Virus record (IMG/VR): IMGVR_UViG_3300027801_001565
Origin: a virus
DNA: 64,000 nucleotides
Strand: one strand, 5' to 3'
Shown: positions 8,737 through 40,537 of the stretch, piece by piece
How the letters are laid out: each line of letters begins with the position of its first letter
Numbering within the stretch: the first letter of the stretch is position 1
Program-made: the position numbers and the translations under genes
The notes under the pieces: model-generated
What the model was told of the DNA's origin: nothing
The model's input: only the letters and a program-made list of their open reading frames with translations
The model's database searches: none

Positions 8737-8743
8737 ATATCAG

Positions 8744-9722: not shown

Positions 9723-9807
9723 GTTATTCCTCAATTTCTATATACATTATAAGTTCTTGTGGAGCTTATGTCAACAGTTATATACATCTTTTGGTCCTAT
9801 CACAGAT

Positions 9808-9841: not shown

Positions 9842-9856
9842 CTCGTCGGATTGTAA

Positions 9857-10024
9857 CTATCCCTTTTCCGCTGTATAAACGGTCCAGATGCCATAAGCCA
9901 ATGCTGGCCAGGCTAATAGTTTAACAATAGGCGCGGCTACAATAACTAACAATGAGATACATACGATGGTTACACCATCCCATGAGGTTCTCTCAAATAA
10001 TCTATCTTTAATATAGTCTACCAT
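9857..10024 (-). CDS. small membrane protein (not in ORF track)
   Basis: Hand translation MVDYIKDRLFERTSWDGVTIVCISLLVIVAAPIVKLLAWPALAYGIWTVYTAEKG*; AGGAGGAG RBS. Confidence 0.75.
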   Translation of the reverse strand: MVDYIKDRLFERTSWDGVTIVCISLLVIVAAPIVKLLAWPALAYGIWTVYTAEKG

Positions 10025-10040
10025 ATCTCCTCCTAAAGGT

Positions 10041-10226
10041 TTAAAGGCTGTTCTTTTTGTCTTGGATCTCTCCTCGACGGGTTTTAGCTGCTTTGGTTAG
10101 TTCCATAAGAGCTTTACGGGCTCTAGCTGCTGAGGCTTTTACACCTTTTGTTTCAAAGTTTTCAGACTCTGCAATGTAAATAGCAAATGCTTCTACTAAT
10201 ACTTCATGTGTCATATTGTTCTCCAT
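10041..10226 (-). CDS. histone H1-like (Hc1-type) basic protein
   Basis: F..KGVKASAARARKALMEL.K.AK..R.EIQ.KKN. Confidence 0.7.
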   Translation of the reverse strand: MENNMTHEVLVEAFAIYIAESENFETKGVKASAARARKALMELTKAAKTRRGEIQDKKNSL

Positions 10227-10235
10227 AATGATAAT

Positions 10236-10685
10236 TTATTGTGTATCTAGATCGACGTTCGGTGTTGTCTCTTCAGCGCCTTCTTGAAATACATACTCTG
10301 GGTTATTAGCAAGTTCTAGGTATTTAGCCTCGTCCCAACCTGCTCTAGGAGCAAAGTTGTTAGACCAATCAGATACACCAGTGTTAGTCCACCCTTCGCC
10401 AGGTAGCCATTCCATGTTTGTATCAGCATTGTAGAATACATCATGTGTATCTTCATGCGTTGGTGAAAGCCATGTTTGAGTAACAGCACTCCAATACGAA
10501 CTAGTACCTTCAAGTTCTACCGGCATTTCGTGTGTTGGTGTTTCTGGATGCTGGTAGTCGCCCGGTGCAGGTGGTGTAAACCCATCTGTTTCCCCTGCTT
10601 CATATAGTGCAAGTTCCAACTCTAGGATTTGTTCCTTGATATTAAAAAGTATCTCAAATACTTCTTTGTTTGATTCAATAGCCAT
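10236..10685 (-). CDS. hypothetical acidic protein
   Basis: AAGGAG RBS before ATG 10685 (MAIESNK). Confidence 0.65.
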   Translation of the reverse strand: MAIESNKEVFEILFNIKEQILELELALYEAGETDGFTPPAPGDYQHPETPTHEMPVELEGTSSYWSAVTQTWLSPTHEDTHDVFYNADTNMEWLPGEGWTNTGVSDWSNNFAPRAGWDEAKYLELANNPEYVFQEGAEETTPNVDLDTQ

Positions 10686-10698
10686 TTCTATCTCCTTG

Positions 10699-11220
10699 TT
10701 ATTTAGATTTTGGTTGTTGTTTGTCATCTTCTCTAGGAATAACACTCCATCTACCAAATAGTCTTACAGACCAATAGGCGGGATATGCTTTCCAATTAGC
10801 TGTTGGAACATCTGCTTCCAACATAGCCTCTAAGAAGACTTTATCAGCTACAAGCTTTGCTTGCTTTGCTGATTGTTTAGATTCGACTGTTTCATCTTTA
10901 CCATCAGAACCAATGGGGTATCCATTTTTAATTCTGTTTTGTCGTATTGCTGAGTATAAAGCGTCGTGTATAACAGCAGCTCTCGCTACGTCAAACGGTG
11001 CTATTACTACCCAAGCAATTCTAGGTACAGATGCTAAGTCTGTTTTAAATCCTTTTTTAGCTGTGATTTTACCAGCTCTGTTAATGGTGGCGCCAACTGC
11101 TTTTAAGGCAGCTCTGTCATCTTCCGATAACTTATCACTATCAAAAACTAAACTAGAATCTAAAGTCCACGTTTTAGGTGGGGTGAATTTGGCATCTAGT
11201 AGCCTGTTAAATTTAGACAT
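10699..11220 (-). CDS. DUF1353 family protein
   Basis: GFKTDLASVP, AAVIHDALY, ADKVF.EAM, VRLFG. Confidence 0.8.
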   Translation of the reverse strand: MSKFNRLLDAKFTPPKTWTLDSSLVFDSDKLSEDDRAALKAVGATINRAGKITAKKGFKTDLASVPRIAWVVIAPFDVARAAVIHDALYSAIRQNRIKNGYPIGSDGKDETVESKQSAKQAKLVADKVFLEAMLEADVPTANWKAYPAYWSVRLFGRWSVIPREDDKQQPKSK

Positions 11221-11250
11221 AATCTCTCCTTTTATTAACTGTTCTATTCT

Positions 11251-11262
11251 TATTTATAAATA
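11251..11262. promoter_or_regulatory. palindromic divergent T4 late promoter
   Basis: TATTTATAAATA contains TATAAATA on both strands, between divergent genes. Confidence 0.65.
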
Positions 11263-11366
11263 CTAATAGGTACACATTACAATATAGGTACTTTAAACAC
11301 ACATATGTTGACAAATGGTTGTTTAGAGTGTATTGTATTGTTTTAAATAATAAAGAGGTAACAGTT

Positions 11367-12704
11367 ATGAGTCAATTAGATTTTAATGTAAATAGATACG
11401 GCGACATGAGAATTGCTATATTTCAATCCAAGTGTAAGAATGGCGCTCCACATGAACGTGTCAAAGGTGCCACACCGATAGTACTAGAGAAGATACAGAC
11501 AAAAACAGCCACCAGGAACATAGGTCGTATGAGTCTATCTGAATTAACCAAAATTTTAAGCATGTCAGCTAAAGAGTACAAATTCATAGACAAGTCTGGC
11601 GGTGAGCATGGGAAAACAACTTTATTCAAGAGTGATGAGTACAAAGGCGGTGAAGGTGAGGGGAAAAAGACATTCAACAAAGGCAACGTTGCTGAATTAA
11701 TATTTGCCGCTGCCATAGCTTGTAGGTTCAAGAGTAAGGAACAAAACGTTACCGAGAACAACATAAAGAGTATGATAAGATCCTTGGGCGCTAGCAATAC
11801 TGGTAAGAAGTCTTGGGAATCTAAGAATAAGGATGTAACAATACTCGATACTGTGTGTCTTCAATATGGACTTGCTCTTAATAACTACAGGGCTGTTAAG
11901 GATATGTCTCTTTGGTCAGCCTTTTCCAGTGAAATTAGCGGCGCTGTAGACTATGCCAACAGCACTATCGTACAAGAGTGGGCGGATTTGTTTTATGTCA
12001 ATAATGTTAAGAATGAGATAACAGTACTAGCAGACGGTGAAACAGACCAAACAGGTACAAAGGTAGACGTAAGAGTTTTAGCAACAGACCATGAAGGAAA
12101 GACTATACCAGTTAACATTAACGTATCACTTAAGATTGGTGGCGTAGGACAGTTTGGACAGATGGGAGGTGTAACATATGAGGTACAAAAGACACTTTGG
12201 AAAGAGTTCTTTAATGTAAGCTTGCCGTTCTCTAAGTCTATGTTCAACTCTAAGCTTGGTAGTTTAGCACACGAAAAGGATGCTGCTGTTGCGCTTATGT
12301 ACAGTTACAAACAAGTAGCTAATAGTGTGGCAACATCACTGTCTGGTAAGGAAGGAAAGAGAGTGTTGGCTAAATCTATAATAAAACACCTTACATTAAA
12401 TGAGGATTATGTTTCACTCGTAGACTTGAAGGGAGGCGCTGCTATTAACTATAATTTTGATAAAATTCATGACATGATGGAAGGCTTAGACTTTTATTCA
12501 GTTATAGGCGTAAGTAAAGGTAGAGGATCTAGTGAAGACTTACCTCTTATGTCTATATATGTTGATAAGAGGAAACGGCCTGATGATCTATTTATTGATA
12601 TAAGAGTTAAACGTGGTGATTATGGGGCTGACGGATTACCTTACTACAGAAACATATTTGAGAAGAAGAAAGCATTTACAAACCTATTAGGTGTTAAACT
12701 CTGA
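11367..12704 (+). CDS. putative PD-(D/E)xK restriction-like endonuclease
   Basis: GNVAE helix, KVDVRV and NVSLK motifs; GAGG RBS; TTGACA-N17-TATTGT promoter at 11308-11336. Confidence 0.55.
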   Translation: MSQLDFNVNRYGDMRIAIFQSKCKNGAPHERVKGATPIVLEKIQTKTATRNIGRMSLSELTKILSMSAKEYKFIDKSGGEHGKTTLFKSDEYKGGEGEGKKTFNKGNVAELIFAAAIACRFKSKEQNVTENNIKSMIRSLGASNTGKKSWESKNKDVTILDTVCLQYGLALNNYRAVKDMSLWSAFSSEISGAVDYANSTIVQEWADLFYVNNVKNEITVLADGETDQTGTKVDVRVLATDHEGKTIPVNINVSLKIGGVGQFGQMGGVTYEVQKTLWKEFFNVSLPFSKSMFNSKLGSLAHEKDAAVALMYSYKQVANSVATSLSGKEGKRVLAKSIIKHLTLNEDYVSLVDLKGGAAINYNFDKIHDMMEGLDFYSVIGVSKGRGSSEDLPLMSIYVDKRKRPDDLFIDIRVKRGDYGADGLPYYRNIFEKKKAFTNLLGVKL

Positions 12705-12705
12705 T

Positions 12706-13254
12706 ATGAGTAAAGCTTCGTTATTTTTCTTATTCAATCATAAGAATACATTGTATATCGTGGACAACACCCAAGTCCAGGATGTACCAAAGCCTCGTGA
12801 ACTTATTAGAAGGTTCTCTACTATTGAACAAATAAGACAACACGCGCTACACTTAGGATTAGAGATCGCTAACGATACAGCGAGAGAAAGAACAAAACAT
12901 CACACACCTGAAGGTATAGAAAGGATACGCTTGGCTAAACTGGGCGACAATCATCCTGCTCGTAAGAATGGCAGGGATGCTGAGTTTAGAGATAAGGTAT
13001 CAAGAACGATGACGGGTACTAGGAGAGGCAATAACAATCCAATGTATGGTAAGGCTCATAGAAAAGAGACTAGGATTAAAATGTCCCAAGCCTCTTTCTT
13101 TAAGGAGCGTCGTAGATGGTGTGTATCACCTGAGCAAGTAACAACAACAATCCCTGTTAGTGAACCACTACCAGAAGGCTGGCAATGGGGTAGGTTCTAC
13201 GACAAATACAGGCCTGATCCTATTCAGTTGCCAGATCCACAGGAAATATCTTAA
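12706..13254 (+). CDS. NUMOD3-motif DNA-binding protein
   Basis: NNPMYGKAHRKETRIKMS, HTPEGIERIR, C-terminal PEGWQWGR. Confidence 0.7.
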   Translation: MSKASLFFLFNHKNTLYIVDNTQVQDVPKPRELIRRFSTIEQIRQHALHLGLEIANDTARERTKHHTPEGIERIRLAKLGDNHPARKNGRDAEFRDKVSRTMTGTRRGNNNPMYGKAHRKETRIKMSQASFFKERRRWCVSPEQVTTTIPVSEPLPEGWQWGRFYDKYRPDPIQLPDPQEIS

Positions 13255-13900
13255 CAATAGCTTCAGCTATACTCTCAGCTAGTTGAATATGTTCTAGCTG
13301 CGTGCCATTAGCCCTACGGAGCTCAATGTAGTGAACCCAACTACGCAACGTTCCATTAACATACAGTCTACTCATTGTATTTCCTTCGGGTAGTACTGCT
13401 CTTGCTTGTTCTTTAGCAATGCCGTTCTCAATAGCCCAGTCGTAAGCCATCTTTGCAGTCTCTATTACTGCTGATTGCTTGTTAGCCCATTCATCATACA
13501 ATACACCATCATCACATACAATAGAATTTTGCCTGTTCTTTGGATCTTGTAAACGTGGTTCTCTAATCTCAAACTCTAAATCCTTTGTAGGATCTGCATA
13601 CCGCTGGCTGAATTCTTGAAAGCTAAAACTCCTGTGTCGTAGAAGTTGTCTTCCTATGTCTCTAGTTGTCTCCACTTCCATGCACACACTAACCATCTCA
13701 AGTGGCGACCAGTGTTTATGTTTAATTAGATATTTAACCAGCTTCTCGTTGGTTGCTGAATTGTTCTGATTGTCTGGGTTACTAACTCTAGCACAATATG
13801 CTACAAGATCTAGCATTGATATTTCCCCTGGCTTTGAGCCTACTTGAAAATCTGTTGGTCCAGGGCGTGCTTGGGTGTAACTAATTAGTTTAGTCTTCAT
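13220..13900 (-). CDS. thyX: FAD-dependent thymidylate synthase
   Basis: RHRSFSFQEFSQRY signature; HWSPLE; EQARAVLP. Confidence 0.95.
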   Translation of the reverse strand: MKTKLISYTQARPGPTDFQVGSKPGEISMLDLVAYCARVSNPDNQNNSATNEKLVKYLIKHKHWSPLEMVSVCMEVETTRDIGRQLLRHRSFSFQEFSQRYADPTKDLEFEIREPRLQDPKNRQNSIVCDDGVLYDEWANKQSAVIETAKMAYDWAIENGIAKEQARAVLPEGNTMSRLYVNGTLRSWVHYIELRRANGTQLEHIQLAESIAEAIVKIFPVDLATE

Positions 13901-13916
13901 CGTCGATCCTTTAGGA

Positions 13917-14468
13917 TTACTTGGTGGCTGTTTTCTTTTTAGCTGGGGCGCGTTTCTTCTTAGCTTTAACTGGCTTCACATAGTCTGTGATACCAAGCAG
14001 GCTTAGAATGCCTTCTAGTTTAGGATATATTGTTAACAACTGCACATCTTTAATTGCTGTTATTAAATGAGCTTCCTTAAAATGTAGTCCTTCTAACGTG
14101 GACATCCAATTCATTTCCTGTTTCCATGCTGGAAGATTTTTCATGTTAGACTGTTGATCCATGAATGTTTTAATACGTCTATACTCTAAGGCAATAGTTG
14201 TCTCACCCATACCAGGGGGTGTATCATCTTTGATCTTTACACTATCTGGCATACCATGAGGTAAACCCCAGTCTGCTTTATCAGCGCCTACACCTAATCT
14301 GACTAAAGGAACCACTGTCTGGTTTTTAGCTGCAATAGTTTTAAGACGTTCAACTTGATCTTCTTTCTCATCTATTTCAAAGACCCAATCAAGTGCCTCA
14401 TCTAATTGCCTAAACTTCGTACCGAGGTTATTCAAACCAGGGATCTCATTGCTTTTCTTTGTGCTCAT
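13917..14468 (-). CDS. conserved T4-like hypothetical protein (DUF6433-like)
   Basis: LEGLH.KEA.L...KD motif; position next to rnh. Confidence 0.6.
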   Translation of the reverse strand: MSTKKSNEIPGLNNLGTKFRQLDEALDWVFEIDEKEDQVERLKTIAAKNQTVVPLVRLGVGADKADWGLPHGMPDSVKIKDDTPPGMGETTIALEYRRIKTFMDQQSNMKNLPAWKQEMNWMSTLEGLHFKEAHLITAIKDVQLLTIYPKLEGILSLLGITDYVKPVKAKKKRAPAKKKTATK

Positions 14469-18508: not shown

Positions 18509-18875
18509 CTTGAGGACTCCATTGAATTGGTTCAAAGTCTTTTAAAAAGCTAGCTCTTATTCTTACATGTAACATATCGTTGATACATTTCTCGTCGTGT
18601 CGTTGTTGCCATTGTAATAAGAACTCCTGCATCTTTGCTGGTGCTCTAGTAGGGTATTCAATTATTACTTCTTTTGTAAGTAATGCCTCACCCTCATGTG
18701 GTTTACAATCAGCTGTCGCCTCTGCTAGTACTGCTTTGATCTTAGTTGAGCTACCAAAGTATTTCTCGAACTGTTTATCTGTCTTACAAGAGTATCCAAT
18801 GTAGTATCTTCCGTCTGGGAAATAGGTACAATATACTCTGTGTGTTTGTATTGGTTTCTTTTTTCTTTTTGCCAT
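18501..18875 (-). CDS. GIY-YIG (Seg-like) endonuclease domain protein
   Basis: RVYCT...RYYIGYS...YFGSS; late promoter 5 nt before the ATG at 18875. Confidence 0.7.
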   Translation of the reverse strand: MAKRKKKPIQTHRVYCTYFPDGRYYIGYSCKTDKQFEKYFGSSTKIKAVLAEATADCKPHEGEALLTKEVIIEYPTRAPAKMQEFLLQWQQRHDEKCINDMLHVRIRASFLKDFEPIQWSPQDG

Positions 18876-18892
18876 AATAGTATTTATATGTG

Positions 18893-24982: not shown

Positions 24983-25170
24983 TTATCTATCTCTTTGTTA
25001 TCTAATTCTGTTTTTAATTCTTTTATTCTAATATACGCACTTTGTAGTTGTCGCTGTAGCTCGTATACTTCATTTCTCAGGGCTCTTTCTATCATGTCTT
25101 TGGCTAGAATTGCCTGTCTATATGTCTCTTGTTCGCCGCCTAAATTTAATTTATTCAACACTTTCTCCAA
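24979..25170 (-). CDS. small coiled-coil hypothetical protein
   Basis: Overlaps both neighbours. Confidence 0.6.
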   Translation of the reverse strand: MEKVLNKLNLGGEQETYRQAILAKDMIERALRNEVYELQRQLQSAYIRIKELKTELDNKEIDK

Positions 25171-26204
25171 GCTGTATATTTTAGTTCTGCCTCTAAATTC
25201 TGGAAGGTATTATTACTTATAACATCTTCAACGTTGACTCCAGCTATAACCATTTCATTAATATCTTTAGCCTCTATACTCTCAGGCCATATAACAACCT
25301 TAATCCCATTGCGTATATGCTTTAGTAAAATATTACATACCTCAACATTATGGGGCTGATTATCTATGATAATAATATCATTATCTCCTGGTGTTATCTT
25401 ACCGAAGGCTGTGCCAGCACATGCAATACTATTTGTTAGAAATAAACTATCTAAAGGACCCTCTACTATTTTTACTGGCGTATCTTTACTTATAACATCT
25501 AAACCGAAGATGGTAGGTGAATCTTCAACTATTTTCACCATTATATATCTCAGGGAGCTGTTGCCGTAATCTCTCAAAGTAAGGCCTGTTAGTTTACCAT
25601 CTTCGCTGAAGAATGGGATAGCCAATCGAGGTTCTGTAGTTTTAATTCTATCTTTGTACTTTGGAGCTAATTGAGATATAGTACTAATATCGTCTATGTG
25701 ATATAGTCTATGCCAAACATCTTCAGGGATTTGCCTCGACTTACAGTACTCTACTGCAATGTGTGTATGTGTAGTACCACATGCCTCAGACAATTTATCT
25801 ACTCTATCCATAATACTGTCTATAAGTTTTTCTTTATTCTGCTTCCTAGCACTGAAGTCAGGAGCTTTAAAGTCAAACTCAAATACTTTCTCTGGATTGT
25901 TGTTGCCTTGTTTGCCTGTGTGGCCTGCATTGCCTTCGGTGTATCTTTCTAAGACATATTGCTTATGTAGTAAAGGATCTATTGTCTTTAAGAGATTACC
26001 AAAAGTTGTCCCTGCATCGCAATTATGGCACTTATAGAACATATCGTTACTCTTCCTATACAAGTAACCACGAGCTTTGTTTTTCTTCTTATCGCTGTCG
26101 CCACACAAGGGACACCGAAAATTAAACAGGTAGTCGTCTTTTCTCGCAAACCGCTGAAAACGGTGGGAAGACATGTTTATATATTTCAAATCTAAGTGTA
26201 ACAT
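25155..26204 (-). CDS. DNA primase (T4 gp61)
   Basis: RCPLCGDS...CHNC zinc finger; VEGPLDSLF; KDINEM. Confidence 0.95.
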   Translation of the reverse strand: MLHLDLKYINMSSHRFQRFARKDDYLFNFRCPLCGDSDKKKNKARGYLYRKSNDMFYKCHNCDAGTTFGNLLKTIDPLLHKQYVLERYTEGNAGHTGKQGNNNPEKVFEFDFKAPDFSARKQNKEKLIDSIMDRVDKLSEACGTTHTHIAVEYCKSRQIPEDVWHRLYHIDDISTISQLAPKYKDRIKTTEPRLAIPFFSEDGKLTGLTLRDYGNSSLRYIMVKIVEDSPTIFGLDVISKDTPVKIVEGPLDSLFLTNSIACAGTAFGKITPGDNDIIIIDNQPHNVEVCNILLKHIRNGIKVVIWPESIEAKDINEMVIAGVNVEDVISNNTFQNLEAELKYTAWRKC

Positions 26205-26351: not shown

Positions 26352-26837
26352 TTAGCCTGTGAAGAACTCAGAGACTGTTCCTAGTTGTGGAAAAAATATG
26401 GTAGCAGCTATTAATGCTCCAATGAGAATCCATCTCCACTGCTCCAATTTGTCGATACGTTTTTCAAGGTTTCTTTGATCGCCATTAACTTCCTTTCGTA
26501 ACTCTTGTATGGCAGTTAAGATTTTATCTTCTGTTTTCTTAATGCTGTCGCTCATGTTTCTGTGTTGCTCCAAGTTTTCTCGGGTACTGGTTGATATACG
26601 GCTGTGGAGCTCTTTTACGGCGAATTCGCCAGTCCGTACTCTCTCCCGATTTGTAGTTTCGTTTGATATAAGTCTTTCTTCATGTACTGCTAAGATTGCG
26701 CTATTAGACGTAAGCGCCTTACTAATGCTATCCATAGTCTCATCTAATTTCTGAAACAAATGGCCCATTGCAGCAATATCTGCCTTAATGGTTCCTAATT
26801 CTCTTTCAGTTTTTGCTGTAGTATTATTAGTTGTCAT
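26352..26837 (-). CDS. coiled-coil protein with C-terminal TM segment
   Basis: LAVHEER; LEQWRW followed by a hydrophobic helix. Confidence 0.7.
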   Translation of the reverse strand: MTTNNTTAKTERELGTIKADIAAMGHLFQKLDETMDSISKALTSNSAILAVHEERLISNETTNRERVRTGEFAVKELHSRISTSTRENLEQHRNMSDSIKKTEDKILTAIQELRKEVNGDQRNLEKRIDKLEQWRWILIGALIAATIFFPQLGTVSEFFTG

Positions 26838-27358
26838 GTTTTAAGTCTTTTCTTTTTACGTCTTGTTGCCATTGGCATAAGTCTAGGATCAACACCAGGT
26901 TCCCCTTGAGGACCTATTCCTATACCTGCTATACCACCACCACCAACACTATTCTCGTCTATGAAGCTTCTGAATGAAACAATATTTTGTTCTAATAATT
27001 TAGAATGTAGTATAACATTCTCATCTAGAGAATACAACTCTAACAAAGCACCAATCTCTACCCTATCATCTTCTTCTTTGTATTCCTTTAACAGAGCAAG
27101 AGCTGCTGCAAAAGATAAAAGACGTCTACCTTTAAAGTCTGAAGATTTGGTTAATGCGTATTGTACTTTAAATACAAAACGATTTAGGAATGAGTATGCG
27201 TTTTTTTCGGTTGTAGTAACAGCCTTCTTTAAATTTTTGCCACTGGCGTCGATTATACCGAGCTTATAAGCGGCAGACTGTTCTATTGGTGTAGATAAGA
27301 GTTTAAGTATCTTATATACTACAATAGTATCGAACGCTCTACCTTCCTGCAATGCCAT
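26834..27358 (-). CDS. conserved T4-like hypothetical protein
   Basis: AYKLGIIDASG, SFAAAL.LLKE, SFRSFIDE...GEPGV. Confidence 0.75.
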   Translation of the reverse strand: MALQEGRAFDTIVVYKILKLLSTPIEQSAAYKLGIIDASGKNLKKAVTTTEKNAYSFLNRFVFKVQYALTKSSDFKGRRLLSFAAALALLKEYKEEDDRVEIGALLELYSLDENVILHSKLLEQNIVSFRSFIDENSVGGGGIAGIGIGPQGEPGVDPRLMPMATRRKKKRLKT

Positions 27359-30637: not shown

Positions 30638-32212
30638 CTATACAGTTGATCTTAATTTTTTAATTTTATAATCTTCAATGAATTTTTTAGCATACTCTAC
30701 GGGTGGTGGTAGTTCAACCATTCGTTTAGACATATCTTCCCATTTATGCTTAGGGTCTATTAACCAGTTGTGATATGAAAATGGTAATGGGGGTTGATTC
30801 CCACCTGTAAAATCGTTATCATACCACTCATGTTCTAAGTATGATAACACTTTATATAAATCTAATGTATCTGACTTCCAGTTCATAAAAGACATTTCTT
30901 CTTGGAATGTGCTGTCTTCTGTATTGTATACTATCTCATCATTGTTTGATTCACGTTTAACTAACCCCTCATACAATTTTCTAAACTGTCCTCTTGGCCC
31001 GTCTTCCCAAGGTGAGTTGTTATTATTACACTCTGCCATTGTAGTTTTGTGATAGCCATACTTCTGAGGGTCCATTGCAAATCTGCTCTGTTCCTCATAC
31101 TGTCTTGTCTTATCTGGAATCCATAAAGGCATAATCTGAGATGTTTGTCCGTCCCAATTATTAACTATCCATCTTTTTGTTTCTCTTAATGAATCTAAAG
31201 TCTCATGTGGCAGGCCTGCTATCAGACTTAAATGCGCCTGGAAGTGGCCTCTTTCTCTAGCCCACTCTTTATATGCTAGTAAACCATCTTGTAGTCTACC
31301 AGAGTGCATACCCTTACCTACAGCTTTTGCGGAAGGTGTGTGAAATGATTCTATACCGTAAAACTGAGAGTTTAACCCTATGTCATGTATCATTTGCCAG
31401 TCTTTAGGTTTACATACTAACAAGTCGCCACGAATATAACCTGCACAATTAGGTTTGAACGGGAGTCTCTTTATAGCTCCTGCAAACCTTTCTAATTTTT
31501 CTGTGTAATCGTTAACCGTCTCATCTGATATAGAGTAATTAGTTGTGCCCCATTTCTCATAGTTCTCTAACATCTCTGTATATAAATTGTCCTCAGACCT
31601 GCTGTGATCTTCCTTAATGTTCCTATATGTGAGGGTACAAAAGTGGCAGTTAAATATACAACCACGCCCAAACTCTACTGTAAGGACCTCCTGTGGCTGT
31701 ATATGATCTCTATCTTCGTAATGCGTGGACAAGTTCTTCATCCTAGCAGCCATGTAGTCATGGGTAGCGTCTACGCGCCTAAAAGAGTTTCCGTTTAGCC
31801 ATTTATGTTCTGTATATTTAACATTACCACTAAGAATAGCACTCATAGCTAACTCTCCATAACCATGTACCATGTAGTCTAATGGAAAACCTTCACAATT
31901 ATGGAATGCTTGAGAGCCACCTATGATTAGAATGTCTGGATATTCTTCTTTAAACCAATAGGTAAATTCATATAATGTTTTAAATCGTATTGAGAATGTA
32001 GCACTAAGTCCTAGGAACTTTGTATCCTTAGATACTCTTTGTCTAGTAAATTCTTTAAGCTCTTCTACTGTCCATGATTGAACAAAGTCGAGAACTTCAA
32101 CGTCCCACCCTTCTCTCCGTAGATGTGTTGCTATCTTATGTGCGCCGGGTGCTCGTTTGATTGAATCATAATAATAATCAACCACACCACCTAATATAAT
32201 TCCGTGGTTCAT
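30638..32212 (-). CDS. B12-binding-domain radical SAM protein (paralog 2)
   Basis: GAHKIATHLRREGWDVEVLDF; GRGCIFNCHFC; FYGIESF; IAGLPHET; TATAAATA 5 nt upstream. Confidence 0.85.
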   Translation of the reverse strand: MNHGIILGGVVDYYYDSIKRAPGAHKIATHLRREGWDVEVLDFVQSWTVEELKEFTRQRVSKDTKFLGLSATFSIRFKTLYEFTYWFKEEYPDILIIGGSQAFHNCEGFPLDYMVHGYGELAMSAILSGNVKYTEHKWLNGNSFRRVDATHDYMAARMKNLSTHYEDRDHIQPQEVLTVEFGRGCIFNCHFCTLTYRNIKEDHSRSEDNLYTEMLENYEKWGTTNYSISDETVNDYTEKLERFAGAIKRLPFKPNCAGYIRGDLLVCKPKDWQMIHDIGLNSQFYGIESFHTPSAKAVGKGMHSGRLQDGLLAYKEWARERGHFQAHLSLIAGLPHETLDSLRETKRWIVNNWDGQTSQIMPLWIPDKTRQYEEQSRFAMDPQKYGYHKTTMAECNNNNSPWEDGPRGQFRKLYEGLVKRESNNDEIVYNTEDSTFQEEMSFMNWKSDTLDLYKVLSYLEHEWYDNDFTGGNQPPLPFSYHNWLIDPKHKWEDMSKRMVELPPPVEYAKKFIEDYKIKKLRSTV

Positions 32213-32227
32213 AATGTTATTTATATG

Positions 32228-33129: not shown

Positions 33130-34524
33130 TTAACCTACTGAATAACTAAATGCTTTATAAGCCTTGGAAGCCTTTTTAATTGTTGGACCACCAGATTTAA
33201 TTCGTGACTTGAATGCTTTTGCCTTAGGTGCTTTAAACTTGCCAGGCTTCTTAATTTTATATCTCTTAGCCTTCTGACTAGCTGCTCCACGTATTGCTTT
33301 AGCTGCTTTGTACTTCTTACTAGTAGTAGCCCCTGCCTTACCTCTACTTCCTAAACGTTTAATTTCGTTCTTTCTCATCTGAGGTAATAGTTTAATTGAT
33401 ATACGATTAACTAATGGTTGGAATCTAGTAATCATTTTCTCTACCCTTGCCTTCTCAGCAGGTGGTAAAGATCCTCTATCTCTTCCTCTGAGCAATCGTT
33501 TGTATACCATAAGTCTCGCACCACGAGTAGCTCTTCTTTTCAATCTGTCTGGAGTTGAACCACGTCTTAGAGCAATACGTCTTGCTACTTTTAATTTTTG
33601 TTTGTTACGTCTCGCATTAAAACGTCTTTTCATACGTCCTTGTACAGATAGTACTTCGTGTATAGCTACATCATTGTTTGGATCGCCATCGAAGTCTTCA
33701 TCTTCTAGTTCTTCTTCGTCATAAAGACCTAGATTAAGAGCATCTTTGAATGTGAAGTTGTCTGCTGCTTTATCTAACTCGTCGACATCTATTTGTTCTA
33801 TATACCACTCGCCGTCTTTACCTGTTAACCAATGGCCTTCATCACCTGTATCATGTGTCTCTTTCTCATTGTTAACAGGGTACTCGTGTTTACTGTGGTT
33901 TGCTTGATTAGGTTCAATGTGATCGTAACCTACAAAGTTTTCAGGATCTGCATATCGCATCAAGTCAAATGTTTCATTGTATCCTTTAACAACAGGGGCG
34001 TCCTGGTGAAGAGGATCCATGTCCCCCATATGAGGTGATATCAACTTCTTCTTTTTGTTTAACAGTTTTTCTGTTATCTTTGTACCAATCTCATCTTGAG
34101 GCCTTCTAGCCTTAATAGGCAATGTTTTTAGAGGTTTAGATACTTTCCCTTCGCCTGGTGTTAGAGATTTAAAATATGCTGTGCCTTGAGGTGTTCCCCA
34201 TTCCATACCGCCTGGAGTTGGATCGTAACGTTCGTCTTCTTTAATAGGCACCGGGGAGGGATTCTTTTTAACAGACTTCTTTGCTGAGTCTATCATTCGT
34301 TTTTCGTGTTTTGCTAACGTTTCTTTTTGTTTGGCATTGCGATCGTCCCAGTAGCCTTCTTTCTGAGTAGTTAACGAATCGTAGCTTATCTTTTTATTGA
34401 AGGAAGCTTTGTAATCCTTAATAGATTTGAATTTACTTCTGTCTACTTTTATCCCAGCTTTCAATCTATCTTGTGGTTTAGGAACGTTGCCTGCCGACAT
34501 TGCAGCTACATTTTCTTTCTGCAT
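33130..34524 (-). CDS. basic putative internal head/core protein; probably the C-terminal part of a frameshift fusion
   Basis: Arg/Lys-rich C-terminus; frame is open upstream to the A9 run; no SD before the ATG. Confidence 0.7.
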   Translation of the reverse strand: MQKENVAAMSAGNVPKPQDRLKAGIKVDRSKFKSIKDYKASFNKKISYDSLTTQKEGYWDDRNAKQKETLAKHEKRMIDSAKKSVKKNPSPVPIKEDERYDPTPGGMEWGTPQGTAYFKSLTPGEGKVSKPLKTLPIKARRPQDEIGTKITEKLLNKKKKLISPHMGDMDPLHQDAPVVKGYNETFDLMRYADPENFVGYDHIEPNQANHSKHEYPVNNEKETHDTGDEGHWLTGKDGEWYIEQIDVDELDKAADNFTFKDALNLGLYDEEELEDEDFDGDPNNDVAIHEVLSVQGRMKRRFNARRNKQKLKVARRIALRRGSTPDRLKRRATRGARLMVYKRLLRGRDRGSLPPAEKARVEKMITRFQPLVNRISIKLLPQMRKNEIKRLGSRGKAGATTSKKYKAAKAIRGAASQKAKRYKIKKPGKFKAPKAKAFKSRIKSGGPTIKKASKAYKAFSYSVG

Positions 34525-34607: not shown

Positions 34608-35660
34608 CTACCTTTTTTTTTGAGAGTCCACACGTTTTTTAATATTTTCGCCTGAGACTGGATTGTAAAGCTTCTTCTTACTAGGTGAAACTGGTTGTTT
34701 CTCGTTGGCTGAATCAACTGCTTTGACAACCTTATCAACTCCGCGCCTTACTAGATTGGCTAAACTTTCTTCCATATTATTTAAATCGAATACAATATGG
34801 TTTGCTTCATTTACCTTAGGTGATTCCTTCGGTAGGCCTGCTTTCTTAAGTTTCTCTTTAGTTCTTAAATCTGAAACAACTGGATCGTAATTATCATTAG
34901 AAGACTCTGTTTTTAAATTCTTCATTATTCCTACTTGTCTTGCACGGATGTCTTCGCCAATTCGTTTATCTTTTGGATCTTTGAACTGAGATGCAATTTT
35001 ATTTTGTAAATGCTTAGGTATAGGCTTATTACTAGGTTTATATTTAGGTTTTAAGTCCGCTGCCATATCTTTAATATTGTAGCCTTCACTCCAATCTTTT
35101 CTGACGGTTTCTTTTCCACCAGGGCCGATGTCTGTTACTTTTGTTTTAATAGGTGGACCGTTGTATTTAATCTTAACTGTTTTAAGACTGTCTGGCTTTG
35201 TGCTGTGTACTACAGCTTTCTTCCTACCTGCTAGTGCTTTTGCTCGCCTTTTTTCGTTATCATTAAAATCTTCATTTTGAGTGGCTCTTTTTGCTAATTT
35301 CTTAGTTGCTCTAATAACACCCTTTGCTCTCTGGACACTTTTCATGTCTTCTTTCTCGCCTGCGTCAAAATCATCTGAGTGTGCTAATTTGTGAGCTCCT
35401 TTAGAAGCCAAATTACCTACTGATTTTTTACTTAGAGGTGATACTGCTTTTCTTACATAATTGGATAGTGTCTTAGTTTCTAGCTCTGTGATGTTTTCTT
35501 CTTTCATCTTAAGGGATTTTAGTGGCTTTACTGAAAAGTTTTTTGAATTGTCGTTATGTGTGTCGCCCATTGGTTTCACCAAAGCTTTTTTAGCTGGCCT
35601 ACCAGAAGCTAAGTCCTCACTCATAAGTTTTATTGATTTTTCGATGTCTGTTACTGGCAC
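34608..35660 (-). CDS. Lys-rich modular putative internal head protein
   Basis: GTG start, GGGAGA RBS, late promoter 35682-35689; repeated xxE junctions. Confidence 0.7.
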   Translation of the reverse strand: MPVTDIEKSIKLMSEDLASGRPAKKALVKPMGDTHNDNSKNFSVKPLKSLKMKEENITELETKTLSNYVRKAVSPLSKKSVGNLASKGAHKLAHSDDFDAGEKEDMKSVQRAKGVIRATKKLAKRATQNEDFNDNEKRRAKALAGRKKAVVHSTKPDSLKTVKIKYNGPPIKTKVTDIGPGGKETVRKDWSEGYNIKDMAADLKPKYKPSNKPIPKHLQNKIASQFKDPKDKRIGEDIRARQVGIMKNLKTESSNDNYDPVVSDLRTKEKLKKAGLPKESPKVNEANHIVFDLNNMEESLANLVRRGVDKVVKAVDSANEKQPVSPSKKKLYNPVSGENIKKRVDSQKKR

Positions 35661-35694: not shown

Positions 35695-36093
35695 TTAATC
35701 TTTTACTTCCGGATCTACTGGTTCTTTAGGTTTATTAGCAATAGCATCTTCGTAATATACGATAACTGTCTTTTGCTGTTCTATATAACGGACTAACTCT
35801 GCCATGTTTAATGACAGGTTCTCATAGTCTGGGATGCTAAGTGCAAAGAATACCATGTCTGCGTGAGTAGTTGTAAATTTTTCTTTAAACTCTTCAAAGT
35901 TAGCTTCTGTTACCGCCCAGTATTTCGTAGGGTATAACGAAACTCCTCGTGGCCTAGGTTGTATAGGAATTGCTCTTTCTATAAATTTGGTTTGTACTTC
36001 AATCTGTGGTGGAGTTTGAAGTAAGCTACAACCACTACTGACTATCAGTAGAAGTAATAGACTCGAGCTCTGTAGTAAGCTTTTGTACGGCAT
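35695..36093 (-). CDS. putative outer-membrane spanin (Rz1-like lipoprotein)
   Basis: Lipobox-like LIVSSG-C; overlaps the i-spanin 3' end. Confidence 0.7.
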   Translation of the reverse strand: MPYKSLLQSSSLLLLLIVSSGCSLLQTPPQIEVQTKFIERAIPIQPRPRGVSLYPTKYWAVTEANFEEFKEKFTTTHADMVFFALSIPDYENLSLNMAELVRYIEQQKTVIVYYEDAIANKPKEPVDPEVKD

Positions 36094-36406
36094 TGTTTAC
36101 CCTCGTTTCAATTAACCCTGGCTTTCTTAGGGTTAGTGCTGTTAAATTGTGTTCTCTTAGTTTTTTCGACAGTTCACTACCATAAGCCTCTGAAGCCTGT
36201 AATTTTACATTTAGCTCATTTGATAACGATTGAAAACGTTCTCTGTCGTCGGATAACGTATCTATCGTATCCTGATTAGTTTGTGCAACGATTGATAACG
36301 CTGCGTTGTTCTCGGTTAGTCGTGTTATCTTCTTTTCAGTAAAATAATAATAAGTGCCAAATGCTAACGTCATCATCAGGAACATTCCAAAGAATACTTT
36401 ACTCAT
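36035..36406 (-). CDS. putative inner-membrane spanin (Rz-like)
   Basis: N-terminal TM segment, coiled coil, KPGLIE.RVN. Confidence 0.7.
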   Translation of the reverse strand: MSKVFFGMFLMMTLAFGTYYYFTEKKITRLTENNAALSIVAQTNQDTIDTLSDDRERFQSLSNELNVKLQASEAYGSELSKKLREHNLTALTLRKPGLIETRVNNAVQKLTTELESITSTDSQ

Positions 36407-36719
36407 TTTTATACCTTTTCTTTTCTAGTTTACTTATCCTCTCCGCCAACTCTGTAGCATTACCCTTCTCTATGGCAGGGTGTGCTTGTGCCTCTAACTT
36501 GTCTATTCTTGTGGCAAGTAATGGATAATCTTGTCTCCACTTTGCCTCTTTTTTGCCTATTTCTATGTCGTATTTTTCGCTTAGGTAAAACATAAAGTTA
36601 TCCAAATGTACCTGGAACCATACTCCTGCCTTTGTACTTAGGAACCACTTACTAAAAGCGTTTCCAAAAACTGCTGTTATACAAGCGATACTTAATTTTA
36701 TTAATATTAACATCTCCAC
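36399..36719 (-). CDS. hypothetical membrane protein
   Basis: N-terminal hydrophobic segment; upstream of the spanins. Confidence 0.55.
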   Translation of the reverse strand: MEMLILIKLSIACITAVFGNAFSKWFLSTKAGVWFQVHLDNFMFYLSEKYDIEIGKKEAKWRQDYPLLATRIDKLEAQAHPAIEKGNATELAERISKLEKKRYKNE

Positions 36720-37483
36720 CTCTTTAATGATTGGGCCTTTCTAGTCGGCCGCCCTTTATCGTCTTCCTTAACACAATTATCTACAGTTCTCTTACCTTTC
36801 TTCTTAGAGCCTTGTAACTTGTATCCGTCCCAACATGCTTTACCGTCTAATCCTTTTGCCTTTTCCTCAGTAAGAAAATTTGAGAAGTCCATCATTCCTC
36901 TCTCCTCTTTCTGTAGATTCATTCCTTCACGAGTCGCCTTGAATAATTTCTGTCCATGTTCGTCTGAATGGTTAGGGTGTAGTCCAGATTTAAAAGATTT
37001 GTAATCGTTATTAGTGGCATGAGCTCTCATCTTTGTTCCACTTATACCCGACACACCTTCAGCATCAGGATCTCTATGTCCTGCTGAGAGAATATGTATT
37101 TTCTTATAGTCGTATTCTTTTCCGTTGTACTTATGAGCCAACGCTTTAAATTGTTTTACTCTGTCAGAACCCACAACCATTGTTGCGTGTGTATGTCCTT
37201 CCTGATTGAATTTTTTAAGTTGGTGTAAAAATGAAGGGTGTTCTTTAGTAGAGTTTGAGAAGTTTACATCAGGGTGCACATGTTTTAAATAATCTGTCTT
37301 ATGATTGTGATGTAAAGGATCTGTTTTAGGTTTTTGTGAATGACTAACAACCACTGAATGGTTAGCACCAATCTTATCTGCATGTGATTTAACCTTGTCA
37401 ACTACCTTAGAATGTCCAGCAGTTGGTGGGTTCATCCTACCATATGAAAATACTATGTGTTTATCTTTATTTTCTGTTGTCAT
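36707..37483 (-). CDS. HxGH-class (cytidylyl/adenylyl) nucleotidyltransferase-like protein
   Basis: GRMNPPTAGH, VVGSDR, SAG.RDPD, SGTKMR; C-terminal FSNFLTE and CWDGY...NCV module. Confidence 0.8.
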   Translation of the reverse strand: MTTENKDKHIVFSYGRMNPPTAGHSKVVDKVKSHADKIGANHSVVVSHSQKPKTDPLHHNHKTDYLKHVHPDVNFSNSTKEHPSFLHQLKKFNQEGHTHATMVVGSDRVKQFKALAHKYNGKEYDYKKIHILSAGHRDPDAEGVSGISGTKMRAHATNNDYKSFKSGLHPNHSDEHGQKLFKATREGMNLQKEERGMMDFSNFLTEEKAKGLDGKACWDGYKLQGSKKKGKRTVDNCVKEDDKGRPTRKAQSLKRWRC

Positions 37484-38642
37484 TTTTGTTAAAGTTTAGT
37501 GCGCTAAACTCCTTCCTGTCTACGAATTTGGATGGTCTTCCACCTCTAATGGCTACAAAGCCTTCTGGTTTTACTTTCTGTCCATCTACCTCATGTCCCC
37601 ATTCTGATTTCTGGGACATTGTTTTTGTAATAACATCTTTAGCTGCTTGTAAATGTTTGTGCATACCCATTGGACCTTCAAAGTGTTTCTTATTCTTATT
37701 TATATGTCCCATAGTATTGTCCATGGTAGTTTGGTGCCTTGCTTTAGCTGCATCTGTCTTAACACCATCTATCTTCTTCTGATGGCTCTTACTGTGATGT
37801 GCTACAAACCCCTCATGCGAGTGTTCTTCACCTGTCCGTACTGTATGATTAATGTAAGTCTTCATTGCCACAGCGTGTTTCTGGACTGTCTCGTGGTGTT
37901 CTTTTGGGGTATTTTTGAAGTGAGCCACAGCCTGTTCCAAGTGATGGTCTACTTGCTTACGATCTTCCTGTGTGTAGTGATGACTGCTAACATCGTGGTT
38001 GGCACTCATAAGGTGCACATCTTTGTGCTTTGTGAACTCCTTAGCGTCAATAGCACCGTGTTTAGCCTTCATATCCGCTATAGTCTTACCCTCGTACTCC
38101 GTGTGTATCGCTAACCCTAGCTTAGCTCTCTTAGCTGCTTTACCGTGGTCTGAGTCTGCGGGTGCGTGATATGTTATTAACTGTGGTGTAAAGTCTACCC
38201 TGTTGTTCTTCTTATCGTGCTTCACATCGCCTGCGTGCATTATGTCCGCTTGGTATACACCGTTTGGCTTTATCTTGTGAGCGTGATCTAAGGCACCTTT
38301 GAGCTTACTTACTAACCCTGGTGCGTGTCCATGATTCTTTTCTATATCCTCATGGGTGTGATTAATCTTTGGTGTTTTGTTGAATGCTGATTTGGATGCT
38401 ACGAAAAACTTACCGTTCTCGGGGTGTTTACCAAATACAACAGCAGGGCTACCATCATATTTAATCGTTGTCGCTGTATCAGATTTCCCTTTGCCTTGTA
38501 AGTCGTTATGCACATCATTAATAGTATGGAATGCGTGTCCAAAACCTTTGTGTCCAGCATGGATGACGTGATCCTCAACATGTTCTAAATGCTTGAGTTT
38601 ATCTTCTTCTGCGTCTTCTTTTAAAAATTCTACAAATCTCAT
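37467..38642 (-). CDS. DUF6267-like His-rich protein with ligase/capping-type nucleotidyltransferase motifs
   Basis: TIKYDG, YQAD, PEGFV, KFVDR; N-terminal MRFVEFLKE; late promoter 38648-38655. Confidence 0.75.
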   Translation of the reverse strand: MRFVEFLKEDAEEDKLKHLEHVEDHVIHAGHKGFGHAFHTINDVHNDLQGKGKSDTATTIKYDGSPAVVFGKHPENGKFFVASKSAFNKTPKINHTHEDIEKNHGHAPGLVSKLKGALDHAHKIKPNGVYQADIMHAGDVKHDKKNNRVDFTPQLITYHAPADSDHGKAAKRAKLGLAIHTEYEGKTIADMKAKHGAIDAKEFTKHKDVHLMSANHDVSSHHYTQEDRKQVDHHLEQAVAHFKNTPKEHHETVQKHAVAMKTYINHTVRTGEEHSHEGFVAHHSKSHQKKIDGVKTDAAKARHQTTMDNTMGHINKNKKHFEGPMGMHKHLQAAKDVITKTMSQKSEWGHEVDGQKVKPEGFVAIRGGRPSKFVDRKEFSALNFNKNDNRK

Positions 38643-38650
38643 ATCAGTAT

Positions 38651-39439
38651 TTATAACTCCTGAACATACGGAAAGTCCAGCCGAGCTGTTTTTGTTCCTC
38701 GTAATTTCTCTACTTCTGGTGGTGCTAGTGGTGCGTAAAAATGATCTTCACTAGTATATACTGTCTTATCTACTGCGTTGTTTACGCTACCATGCTTTCC
38801 AGCACGGACATGGTCTATAATAATAGGCGTGTCTCTGAAAGAAACATCTAATTTTGCTACTCTATTCATAAACTCTCTGTCCCCGTGGTGGTGTCCTGTG
38901 AAGGACTCGTCATACCCACCAGCTTCCCAGAATATTGTCTTAGACATCAAAAAACAATTCAAATGGCCTGAATATCTAGTGTCACTCGTTAGTCTAAATA
39001 GCTTTTGTTGCCACCTAGCATAACTCATATGATGATAAACACTATTAGGAGTAGGACGTATTTGTCTGAACCTAGCAACTTCCCCTGGGGGGATAATCAT
39101 ATCTATATCTGCAAATTGTATCCATTCTGTTGGGGCAACTGTAGCTATTAAATTTCTACAGCCATGACTATTAAACCCTAGGTTCTCTGTAACTCTCCAA
39201 ACTTGTAGCGTTGGACCCCACTCTGGAGGCCGCCAATCGCCAATAACTTCCATTGCAGAAGTTTGTTCGGAGCCATCGTCTACGAGGACTATATCACATC
39301 CTTGACTGTAATGTTCCCATTGCGCTATCTGTTCGCGCAGTCTGTCGGGCTCGTCAAAGTATGTGAAACCGAAAGTTAATCTACTCGGTTCCCTCGAAGT
39401 CTTTGACATCTGTTGCTGGGAAGTCAATAGTGTCTCCAT
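38651..39439 (-). CDS. GT-A fold glycosyltransferase (GT2/GT7-like; start uncertain)
   Basis: VDDGS, RNL, ADID (DxD), GGYDE.F.G...GD. Confidence 0.85.
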   Translation of the reverse strand: METLLTSQQQMSKTSREPSRLTFGFTYFDEPDRLREQIAQWEHYSQGCDIVLVDDGSEQTSAMEVIGDWRPPEWGPTLQVWRVTENLGFNSHGCRNLIATVAPTEWIQFADIDMIIPPGEVARFRQIRPTPNSVYHHMSYARWQQKLFRLTSDTRYSGHLNCFLMSKTIFWEAGGYDESFTGHHHGDREFMNRVAKLDVSFRDTPIIIDHVRAGKHGSVNNAVDKTVYTSEDHFYAPLAPPEVEKLRGTKTARLDFPYVQEL

Positions 39440-39707
39440 GTTGTAGTTGAAAGTGTTCGTTGTGTGTCAAGGATTCAGTTAGATATAATTCATAGCCTGA
39501 ATATACCTCTGCAAAAGAGTCTGACATTTTTCCTTCCAACATATGCTGGAACTCCTGAACCATTCTACCTATTTCAGATATAGTTGGCTCACCATCAAAA
39601 TTACCTAGAATGTATTCGTTGCTACCAGTTGGTGCCCACATGGGGAAGTCTTTCTCTCCCTTTGCTGTCCATAGCCTAGTGGATGCTACTAGTTTCAACT
39701 TCTGCAT
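39381..39707 (-). CDS. hypothetical protein
   Basis: 108-aa ORF, GGAG RBS. Confidence 0.6.
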   Translation of the reverse strand: MQKLKLVASTRLWTAKGEKDFPMWAPTGSNEYILGNFDGEPTISEIGRMVQEFQHMLEGKMSDSFAEVYSGYELYLTESLTHNEHFQLQHGDTIDFPATDVKDFEGTE

Positions 39708-39873
39708 TATACAACTCCAAATTTTTAGTTATTTCTTTTAAATCGATACTGTTTTTTGTAGCTAATTTCTTAGCTGTGTCTTTCCAATAAGCTCTAAAGC
39801 TAGGGTCTAGTGTTCTACGGCTTGCGTTCAAGCAGTTAACTACTCTGCGCGTGTTCTGATCTAGTTTTTTCAT
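39676..39873 (-). CDS. hypothetical protein
   Basis: ATGA-type overlap with upstream gene. Confidence 0.6.
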   Translation of the reverse strand: MKKLDQNTRRVVNCLNASRRTLDPSFRAYWKDTAKKLATKNSIDLKEITKNLELYNAEVETSSIH

Positions 39874-40367
39874 AATCTTTCCTCTGTGTAAGGCAGTTCG
39901 CCTTGTATTAATAATTCGGCTGACAATTTAGGGCCTGCCTCCACGATTCTATTTCTTAGAGATGTACTACTAAAAGTATGATCTCGTTTGTTATAGAATA
40001 ATTCAATGTTGCGATCTAAACAAATCTGCTTGGCGGTGAATTCTTTATTTCTATATTCCTCACCTAGTATTCTCATGTTCAATGGGAGTGTTAGAAATAA
40101 ATCTTCCAATTCGTCTTCAGTAGAGTACATAACGATCTCATCAACATACTTTACAGCAGCTAATTGTATTTGTCGTTCTACTATACTTTGTATGGGTCTG
40201 TTCTTAACATCACCACGATCAATAGTAGGATCAACCTGTAGCGCTGCTATGAGATAATCACAATGACGTTTAGCTTCTTCTAACATTACAACATGTCCTG
40301 CATGTAACAAGTCAAATGTGCTACAGGTAATTCCTATAGAGCCACAATCTTTATAATCTAATCTCAT
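39870..40367 (-). CDS. TagD-like cytidylyltransferase
   Basis: TFDLLHAGH, YVDE, R.H.FSSTSLR. Confidence 0.9.
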   Translation of the reverse strand: MRLDYKDCGSIGITCSTFDLLHAGHVVMLEEAKRHCDYLIAALQVDPTIDRGDVKNRPIQSIVERQIQLAAVKYVDEIVMYSTEDELEDLFLTLPLNMRILGEEYRNKEFTAKQICLDRNIELFYNKRDHTFSSTSLRNRIVEAGPKLSAELLIQGELPYTEERL

Positions 40368-40537
40368 TGTATCCATCCTATAATTATATTTAGCATTATT
40401 AAATACACACAAGCAAGGTTAGACATTACTATAAAGGTTCGGATATATGAAATTCGGTTTTCATTATTAACATCATATCCATCCTCTTCGTCAAAAGATC
40501 CTAGTGCGTGTTTCCATATTGTCCACAACTTATTCAT
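40364..40537 (-). CDS. small membrane protein (W..W..ALG family)
   Basis: MNKLWTIWKHALGSF...IRTFIV; resembles 57118..57306. Confidence 0.65.
   Translation of the reverse strand: MNKLWTIWKHALGSFDEEDGYDVNNENRISYIRTFIVMSNLACVYLIMLNIIIGWIQ

Follow-up and report, generated by a model that had tools for sequence, protein, structure and literature searches.

A candidate late-expressed and packaged pair of adenylyltransferases, one of them RNA-ligase-like, in a T4-like marine myovirus

Proteins carried in the head of phage T4, including the enzyme Alt, are made with propeptides of 10-20 residues that the protease gp21 removes, and Alt undergoes a further, C-terminal cut at LTE-619 (PMC5694885). Mutational work on this capsid-targeting sequence (CTS) assigned targeting to residues 4 and 7, and processing to residues 8 and 10 (PMC9026906). 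In the T4 record, the internal proteins IPII and IPIII begin with MKTYQEFIAE and IPI begins with MKTFKEFTS. For T4-like cyanophages, published virion analyses note the recurrent detection of a nucleotidyltransferase (NTase) but say nothing of such a tag (PMC9146016, PMC9602691, PMC10665884), and a search of the literature library at hand turned up none that connects a CTS with cyanophages. Here we analysed a 64,000-nucleotide stretch of the IMG/VR virus record IMGVR_UViG_3300027801_001565 (hereafter the window), which covers replication and late genes of a T4-like myovirus, among them those of gp43 polymerase, UvsX, gp41 helicase, primase and NrdA; a search of deposited phages with the window found no close relative. 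An original prediction, made from the sequence alone, had singled out two minus-strand open reading frames (ORFs) as a ligase-fold protein and an NTase that are apparently packaged and, as a candidate module, injected. Both ORFs were found exactly where it had placed them, at 37467-38642 (391 residues, a member of the family DUF6267) and 36707-37483 (258 residues), with a mutual overlap of 17 nt. We consider it fairly probable that they form a late cargo module of two enzymes in a T4-like marine myovirus, which is packaged and injected for the early repair of RNA or DNA ends and/or the remaking of a cofactor.

The connection to the T4 head comes from a short peptide. ORF 37467-38642 starts with MRFVEFLKE, as the original prediction had stated, and a similar peptide, MMDFSNFLTE, lies inside the second ORF. 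The common pattern, F-x-x-F-[LI]-x-E, conserves an aromatic residue, a second aromatic residue, an aliphatic residue and a Glu, which are exactly the four functional positions of the T4 CTS. All 120 of 120 close DUF6267 homologues carry this tag, and among 130 diverse representatives it stands at the N terminus of 70 (54% versus 0.6% expected, an enrichment of about 90-fold). Homologue tags such as MTSFRNFLAE match the T4 spacing exactly. The tag is present in the DUF6267 copy of the soil phage DLP6 and absent from cyanophage copies such as that of S-PM2. When written as a DNA pattern and applied to T4, the tag recovered IPII, IPIII and gene 61.1, with zero control matches. In two complete genomes compared (G003 and G004), three to four adjacent non-homologous genes are all tagged, and the reversed control gave 0. 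That many proteins of this phage are tagged was also considered; this holds in G002-G005 and in the cyanophage S-CREM2, and was rejected for the closest relative, G001 (an IMG/VR relative of 170,236 bp, 99% complete, whose DUF6267 gene is 90% identical to the window copy).

The second line of evidence is provided by published liquid chromatography-mass spectrometry (MS) of CsCl-purified cyanophage virions. Three virion proteins detected in this way are homologous to the window NTase and begin with a tag that is followed by Ala: S-SZBM1_140 with 2 peptides (PMC9146016; 40% identity, E 3e-39, MRFRQFIIE), the NMNAT of S-SCSM1, ORF91 (PMC9602691; 37% identity, E 2e-40, MKSFLQFLKE), and the cytidylyltransferase gp154 of S-CREM2 (PMC10665884; 32% identity, E 3e-26, MKNFSSFLTE). 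The adjacent DUF6267 homologue S-SZBM1_141, which is untagged, is not among the 30 virion proteins of S-SZBM1. In S-CREM2, where 3500-14200 and a second stretch were examined, nearly all of the non-structural virion proteins found by MS begin with a CTS-like tag: the S-adenosylmethionine (SAM) hydrolase gp6, gp13, the kinase gp14 and the above gp154. In the "Cas9-like" gp12, the motif occupies residues 18-25. Of the four strict matches to the tag pattern in S-CREM2, three are virion proteins (P = 0.04).

These data can be read differently. The pair might be ordinary cytoplasmic late or auxiliary enzymes that are never packaged, with the tag serving as a conserved amphipathic helix for partner docking, stability or the translation of a leaderless mRNA, and the cyanophage detections reflecting carry-over. 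The cyanophage authors themselves caution that late enzymes made in abundance may be purified along with the virions (PMC10665884), the two peptides are all that represents S-SZBM1_140, and several small proteins with a tag (S-SZBM1_191/192 and S-SCSM1 gp030) are missing from the reported virion proteins; T4 gene 61.1, moreover, has the same motif, yet its product is no known head protein. Carry-over, however, would have to account for a tagged NTase in three independent proteomes and for the tags on nearly all non-structural virion proteins of S-CREM2, and a generic helix for the agreement with all four CTS positions and for the modular occurrence of the tag on non-homologous neighbours. We therefore regard unpackaged enzymes as rather unlikely. 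Three further observations weigh against packaging: the virion data all come from homologues in other phages, and virion studies contain no report of a DUF6267 protein; the tag of the window copy is one residue shorter than that of T4; and G001, the closest complete relative, has the strict tag on this pair alone. Packaging is well supported, though indirectly, by the match to the T4 CTS, the enrichment of the tag and the tagged NTases of cyanophage virions. The capsid-targeting part of the original prediction gained support in that its peptide matches the T4 determinants, is enriched at N termini and marks NTase homologues in three cyanophage virions. On these grounds, the window pair is probably packed and injected, with cleavage of the tags as a predicted step. 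The T4-type machinery for this is absent from the window itself; a prohead protease of gp21 type and a scaffold of gp22 type were found in G001, G002-G005, G010 and G011; G001 also encodes T4-type gp20, gp23, gp2, gp4, the late sigma factor gp55 and a gp30-like DNA ligase.

The first protein of the pair matches the Pfam family DUF6267 (PF19782) over its full length (residues 17-386, E 3.9e-93, 313 bits versus a cut-off of 27 bits). The family is very large, with 2,591 clusters by word-indexed search and, when counted at 50% identity, 1,953 representatives, chiefly from marine viromes and T4-like cyanophages, and a literature search on DUF6267 returned no paper mentioning it. The ligase motifs KYDG (K61), YQAD (Q131/D133), PEGFV (E360/G361) and KFVDR (K372/R376) occur in the right order, as originally predicted, and all of them fall on near-invariant columns of an 84-sequence alignment (K61/D63/G64, Q131/D133, H180/T181/Y183, E360/G361/V363, K372/R376, H18 and H21). 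The same order with similar spacing is found in the RNA ligase NgrRnl, K170/D172...E227...E312...K326 (residues named in the PDB titles). The AlphaFold2 (AF2) model has a predicted local distance difference test score (pLDDT) of 95 and a predicted template modelling score of 0.92, with residues 1-10 disordered (pLDDT <50). Foldseek with this model against the PDB gave no significant match, the weak rows being ligases, and neither of the two proteins nor the family profile gave a meaningful match when compared with PDB sequences. With VIA-align, on the other hand, RNA ligases came out on top in a wide search of 48,161 chains (NgrRnl Z 8.8, Trl1 8.5, REL1 8.4, T4 Rnl1 7.5, Rnl2 7.4). A second look gave Z 9.1 for NgrRnl (root-mean-square deviation 3.5, 184 residues aligned), 8.4 for REL1, 8.2 for Trl1, 8.0 for T4 Rnl1 and 7.4 for Rnl2, versus at most 6.4 for DNA ligases. 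Polynucleotide ligases fill 48 of the 50 best second-look rows, RNA ligases first, and in a viral structural library the neighbours outside the DUF6267 family are likewise RNA ligases.

Sequence comparison points in the same direction at a lower level. Profile alignment placed PEGFVA..SKF on IEGYVA..HFKI of T4 Rnl1 and GVYQADIM on GVLIDGELV of gp30, which we take to be motifs IV/V and motif III, respectively, without reaching significance. Weak RNA-ligase Pfam matches were obtained for 4 of the 84 DUF6267 members, and a protein atlas gave a weak RNA_ligase lead. Against a ligase assignment, hhalign comparisons of the family profile with the single sequences of T4 Rnl2, Rnl1 and gp30 were not significant, and the structural Z-scores are middling (7-9); since they are middling, the assignment rests on the consistency of the matches and on the motifs. 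No oligonucleotide-binding (OB) fold domain of the kind found in ATP-dependent DNA ligases and capping enzymes follows motif V in the model, which ends with a single helix (376-390) and has a helical domain as its sole extra domain. We conclude that the DUF6267 protein has a covalent nucleotidyltransferase fold of the RNA-ligase type, in which some 120 helical residues are inserted between motifs IIIa and IV and an OB domain is lacking. DUF6267 would then be a putative RNA-ligase-like lysine adenylyltransferase, with K61 as the predicted nucleophile. The originally predicted ligase fold thus holds by the confident AF2 model and the RNA-ligase matches of VIA-align; of the check by structure prediction and Foldseek proposed with it, the NTase half gave the expected matches to PPAT and NadD, whereas for DUF6267 Foldseek was negative and the ligase fold is visible by VIA-align only.

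A ligase fold next to replication genes raises the question of a replicative function. The idea that DUF6267 supplies the missing replicative DNA ligase was discarded for this lineage, since G001 already has a gp30 homologue; no homologue of Rnl1, Rnl2 or Pnkp was found in G001. A broader version holds that DUF6267 is a cytoplasmic replication or repair ligase acting on phage DNA or primers, and that its tag docks a protein of the replisome, for instance the sliding clamp. The gp43-UvsX-gp41 synteny around the pair, seen in the window, S-PM2 and S-SZBM1, would agree with this, as would the ligase fold, and terminal clamp-binding peptides are common on ligases. The gp30-type enzyme of G001 counts against the broader version too, and so do the structural ranking of RNA ligases above DNA ligases, the lack of an OB domain, the late type of the promoter (see below) and the presence of the same tag on proteins without a role in the replisome (a SAM hydrolase, kinases and small basic proteins). 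We find a replication ligase improbable.

The second protein is an NTase of the HIGH-motif class, as had been predicted from PPTAGH and SGTKMR; both motifs are present. It matches Pfam CTP_transf_like (PF01467) with 23.4 bits versus a cut-off of 21 bits, and phrog_3041/395 as well. AF2 predicts a confident fold for residues 9-190 (pLDDT >95), which Foldseek matches to PPAT/CoaD and to NadD/NMNAT equally (probability 1.0, E ~1e-5), and the NCBIfam NadD equivalog models score 13-14 bits against cut-offs above 160. Because PPAT and NadD match equally and the equivalog models do not fit, we describe the protein as a HIGH-motif adenylyltransferase with no substrate assigned. The original prediction had also noticed an internal FSNFLTE, which is indeed present at residues 200-206, and which we now interpret as a gene-fusion junction. 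In relatives, the order is NTase, M-x-D-F-x-x-F-L-x-E, an optional CWDGY...NC module and a DUF6321 domain (PF19846) ending in RRRWNC. DUF6321 is full-length in relatives and mostly lost from the window copy, and some copies end right after the tag. In G003 and G004, DUF6267, a DUF6321 protein and a His-rich NTase (MLSFLSFLKE...) are encoded by separate genes, each beginning with a tag, and G003 has a second tagged NTase in addition. These separate tagged genes indicate that the internal peptide is the former N terminus of a small basic protein of the DUF6321 type. As a separate observation, the short two-cysteine module CWxGYK...K.G...V.[ND]C is a recurrent terminal element of many phage proteins lacking a known function (phrog_4359, 27523, 727 and others) and is contained in two virion proteins detected by MS, S-SZBM1_139 (6989-8362 of the examined stretch) and S-CREM2 gp160 (9343-10236 of the examined stretch).

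The two enzymes are likely to work together because they are often fused naturally: fusions of DUF6267 and NTase, in both domain orders, account for about 35 of the 150 best representatives. One of them is S-PM2d138, in the same gp43-UvsX-gp41 neighbourhood. Joint action could also be metabolic. The genes immediately upstream of the pair (window 38651-40412) encode a family-2 glycosyltransferase (GT2) and an RfaE-like nucleotidyltransferase (similar to RfaE domain II, heptose-1-phosphate adenylyltransferase), and HIGH enzymes use small phosphorylated metabolites, so that the pair might belong to a small-molecule pathway for a cofactor or a nucleotide sugar, linked to these neighbours, in which DUF6267 adenylates a metabolite or a protein. 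This arrangement is, however, not kept alongside the pair in S-PM2, S-SZBM1, DLP6 or G003/G004, and polynucleotide ligases, as described above, dominate the structural neighbours of DUF6267. A small-molecule pathway appears quite improbable to us.

Expression of the pair at late times is well supported, although indirectly. The octamer TATAAATA, the late promoter of T4 and KVP40 (PMC2984593), is followed by CTGAT and then by the ATG of ORF 37467-38642, in agreement with the late promoter originally predicted 5 nt before the start codon. The octamer occurs 18 times in the window versus 8.25 expected, 16 of the 18 on the coding strand, and the arrangement TATAAATA-N5-ATG occurs 4 times versus 0.2 expected, always at an ORF start. 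Among relatives, the spacing from promoter to ATG is kept down to 55-58% protein identity while the flanks differ; other sub-clades have an ordinary Shine-Dalgarno leader instead. Because the octamer abuts the ATG, a leaderless or near-leaderless late mRNA is implied. For all four genes with this arrangement, the geometry of T4 late promoters would put the first transcribed nucleotide on the A of the ATG or beside it, giving leaderless late mRNAs.

Both proteins are rich in His, with 44 of 391 residues (11.3%) in the DUF6267 protein and 21 of 258 (8.1%) in the NTase, versus 2.7% in the minus-strand ORFs of the window; both are also Lys-rich. The hand counts of the original prediction were exact, and its suggestion that His enrichment might aid pH-dependent ejection was not supported, nor was a link of His enrichment to packaging. 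The mean His content is 6.4% in tagged and untagged family members alike, and the spacing of His residues is random. The content reaches 9-13% in the marine clade of the window and about 1% in cyanophage copies, with 0.7-6.4% in tagged cyanophage NTases. His-richness as a mark of packaged proteins was rejected on these grounds (equal content with and without the tag, random spacing, low content in tagged cyanophage NTases). To judge from these compositions, it is a trait of family and lineage, real but unrelated to the tag.

Spanins of the Rz/Rz1 type, a holin-like ORF and ORFs very rich in Lys are found downstream of the pair. An apparent lysis cassette lies directly 3' of the pair (window 35695-36719), with a holin-like ORF of 106 residues whose N terminus contains a hydrophobic segment, an i-spanin similar to Rz (phrog_739) and, in overlap, an o-spanin that contains the lipobox-like LIVSSGC. 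Two Lys-rich ORFs without a family match follow at 34608-35660 (17.8% Lys) and 33130-34524 (14.7% Lys). The latter shows homology (E 5e-12) to an extension at the C terminus of a 722-residue "cytitidyltransferase" of Stenotrophomonas phage DLP6, and may therefore be part of the same cargo module. No terminator was found on the coding strand from 41500 to 32000. Tagged ORFs were also observed at other loci. A 93-residue basic protein starting with MKKFLDYLNE is encoded in G002 (73451-73732) just upstream of the gp21 gene, in the gene position of the T4 prohead-core proteins gp67/gp68, and 3 kb downstream of it a tagged 200-residue protein has a sub-threshold match to haloacid dehalogenase (HAD) phosphatases. 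Beside the primase gene of the window (25155-26204), a minus-strand ORF of 174 residues (26834-27358) has at its end the internal tag SFRSFIDE together with a stretch rich in Gly and a basic tail. This tail resembles T4 gp61.1 (MKTFKEFIKE, a Gly-rich stretch and KKKK), which is also encoded beside the primase gene, and a tagged 63-residue ORF of G005.

Features of the pair and its promoter, in window coordinates
Feature	Position	Strand	Description
TATAAATA, T4-type late promoter element	38648..38655	minus	overlaps upstream glycosyltransferase stop codon; 5 nt before ATG
TATAAATA-N5-ATG copies	7577-7592, 18873-18888, 32210-32225, 38640-38655	minus	
DUF6267 protein, 391 residues	37467..38642	minus	predicted RNA-ligase-like domain ~14-224 and ~345-386; helical insert ~225-342
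N-terminal tag MRFVEFLKE, residues 1-9	38616..38642	minus	CTS-like; outside Pfam domain; predicted gp21-type cut after E9
K61 codon, motif I KYDG	38460..38462	minus	predicted lysine accepting adenosine monophosphate (AMP)
HIGH-type adenylyltransferase domain, residues 1-196	36896..37483	minus	TAGH and SGTKMR motifs
Junction tag MMDFSNFLTE, residues 197-206	36866..36895	minus	preceded by Shine-Dalgarno-like AAAGAGGAGAGAGGA; predicted targeting and cleavage site
Basic tail	36707..36865	minus	CWDGY...NC module and truncated DUF6321 remnant ending KRWRC

We propose the following scheme for the packaged pair. The gp55-type late promoter TATAAATA, abutting the start codon, would drive synthesis of an RNA-ligase-like lysine adenylyltransferase, DUF6267, with K61 of KYDG as its nucleophile, and of a HIGH-motif adenylyltransferase related to NadD/NMNAT and CoaD. 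MRFVEFLKE on the ligase-like protein and MMDFSNFLTE at the basic-tail junction of the transferase would act as T4-type capsid-targeting sequences that dock the proteins on the gp22 scaffolding core of the prohead. A gp21-type protease would cut after the Glu of each tag, and the mature enzymes, retained in the head, would be delivered into the cell along with the DNA. Inside, the two could jointly perform adenylate-pyrophosphate chemistry, most likely to seal or repair broken RNA (or DNA) ends and/or to remake an adenylylated cofactor such as NAD+ ahead of phage gene expression. We infer such an early repair or anti-defence role; the substrates of both enzymes are likewise inferred only, which weighs against the scheme.

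DUF6267, whose members number in the thousands in ocean viromes but do not appear in the literature, is given a fold and a candidate catalytic lysine by this comparison. The proposed packaging would explain why NMNAT-like "cytidylyltransferases", and in S-CREM2 a SAM hydrolase and kinases, recur in purified virions, which several cyanophage papers note as a puzzle, and would provide a simple tag rule for predicting the proteins that T4-like phages inject. The pair may exert its effect within the first seconds of infection, in which host defences such as RNA cleavage or NAD+ depletion decide the outcome. A wider generalization is tentative, and we would sooner doubt than assert it: that the tag is a portable capsid-targeting code extending from T4 to cyanophages and to T4-like phages of marine heterotrophs and soil, and the pair a widespread, previously unrecognised injected system for nucleic-acid repair or NAD-linked counter-defence. 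If this were true, the injected proteome of any such phage could be read from sequence.

Compared with known systems, the DUF6267 protein shares with the ATP-dependent RNA ligases Naegleria NgrRnl (Rnl5), T4 Rnl1, T4 Rnl2/trypanosome REL1 and the ligase domain of fungal Trl1 the nucleotidyltransferase fold, the motifs KxDG, an acidic motif III, EGxV (IV) and KxV (V) in order, and about 180-209 residues that superpose (Z 7.4-9.1). It differs from them in that its helical domain of about 120 residues is inserted between motifs IIIa and IV and not appended, in a conserved N-terminal HLEHxED segment, and in lacking an OB or Rnl1/Rnl2-type C-terminal domain and any significant sequence match. The window NTase has the Rossmann-type fold and the (T/H)xGH and SxTxxR-like motifs of NadD/NMNAT and CoaD (PPAT), and 32-40% identity to the cyanophage virion NTases S-SZBM1_140, S-SCSM1 ORF91 and S-CREM2 gp154. 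Unlike these enzymes, it is His-rich, cannot be assigned to nicotinamide mononucleotide (NMN), nicotinic acid mononucleotide (NaMN) or phosphopantetheine, and has its tag at a C-terminal fusion junction. The closest parallel to the pair as a whole is the T4 head cargo, IPI, IPII, IPIII and the ADP-ribosyltransferase Alt. It likewise starts with a short peptide whose two targeting positions are aromatic and whose gp21 site reads aliphatic-x-Glu, is expressed late, and belongs to a phage with a T4-type portal, protease and scaffold. Like Alt, the pair would be enzyme cargo presumably used right after injection, and the C-terminal cut of Alt at LTE-619 parallels the internal ...FLTE junction of the NTase. 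In contrast to the T4 proteins, the cargo here is unrelated in sequence and function, its packaging and cleavage are predicted, the window tag is one residue shorter, and, because of the gene fusion, one of the two tags is internal. The pair, which is probably packaged and injected, can be regarded as a variation on the strategy that T4 uses for its internal proteins and for Alt.

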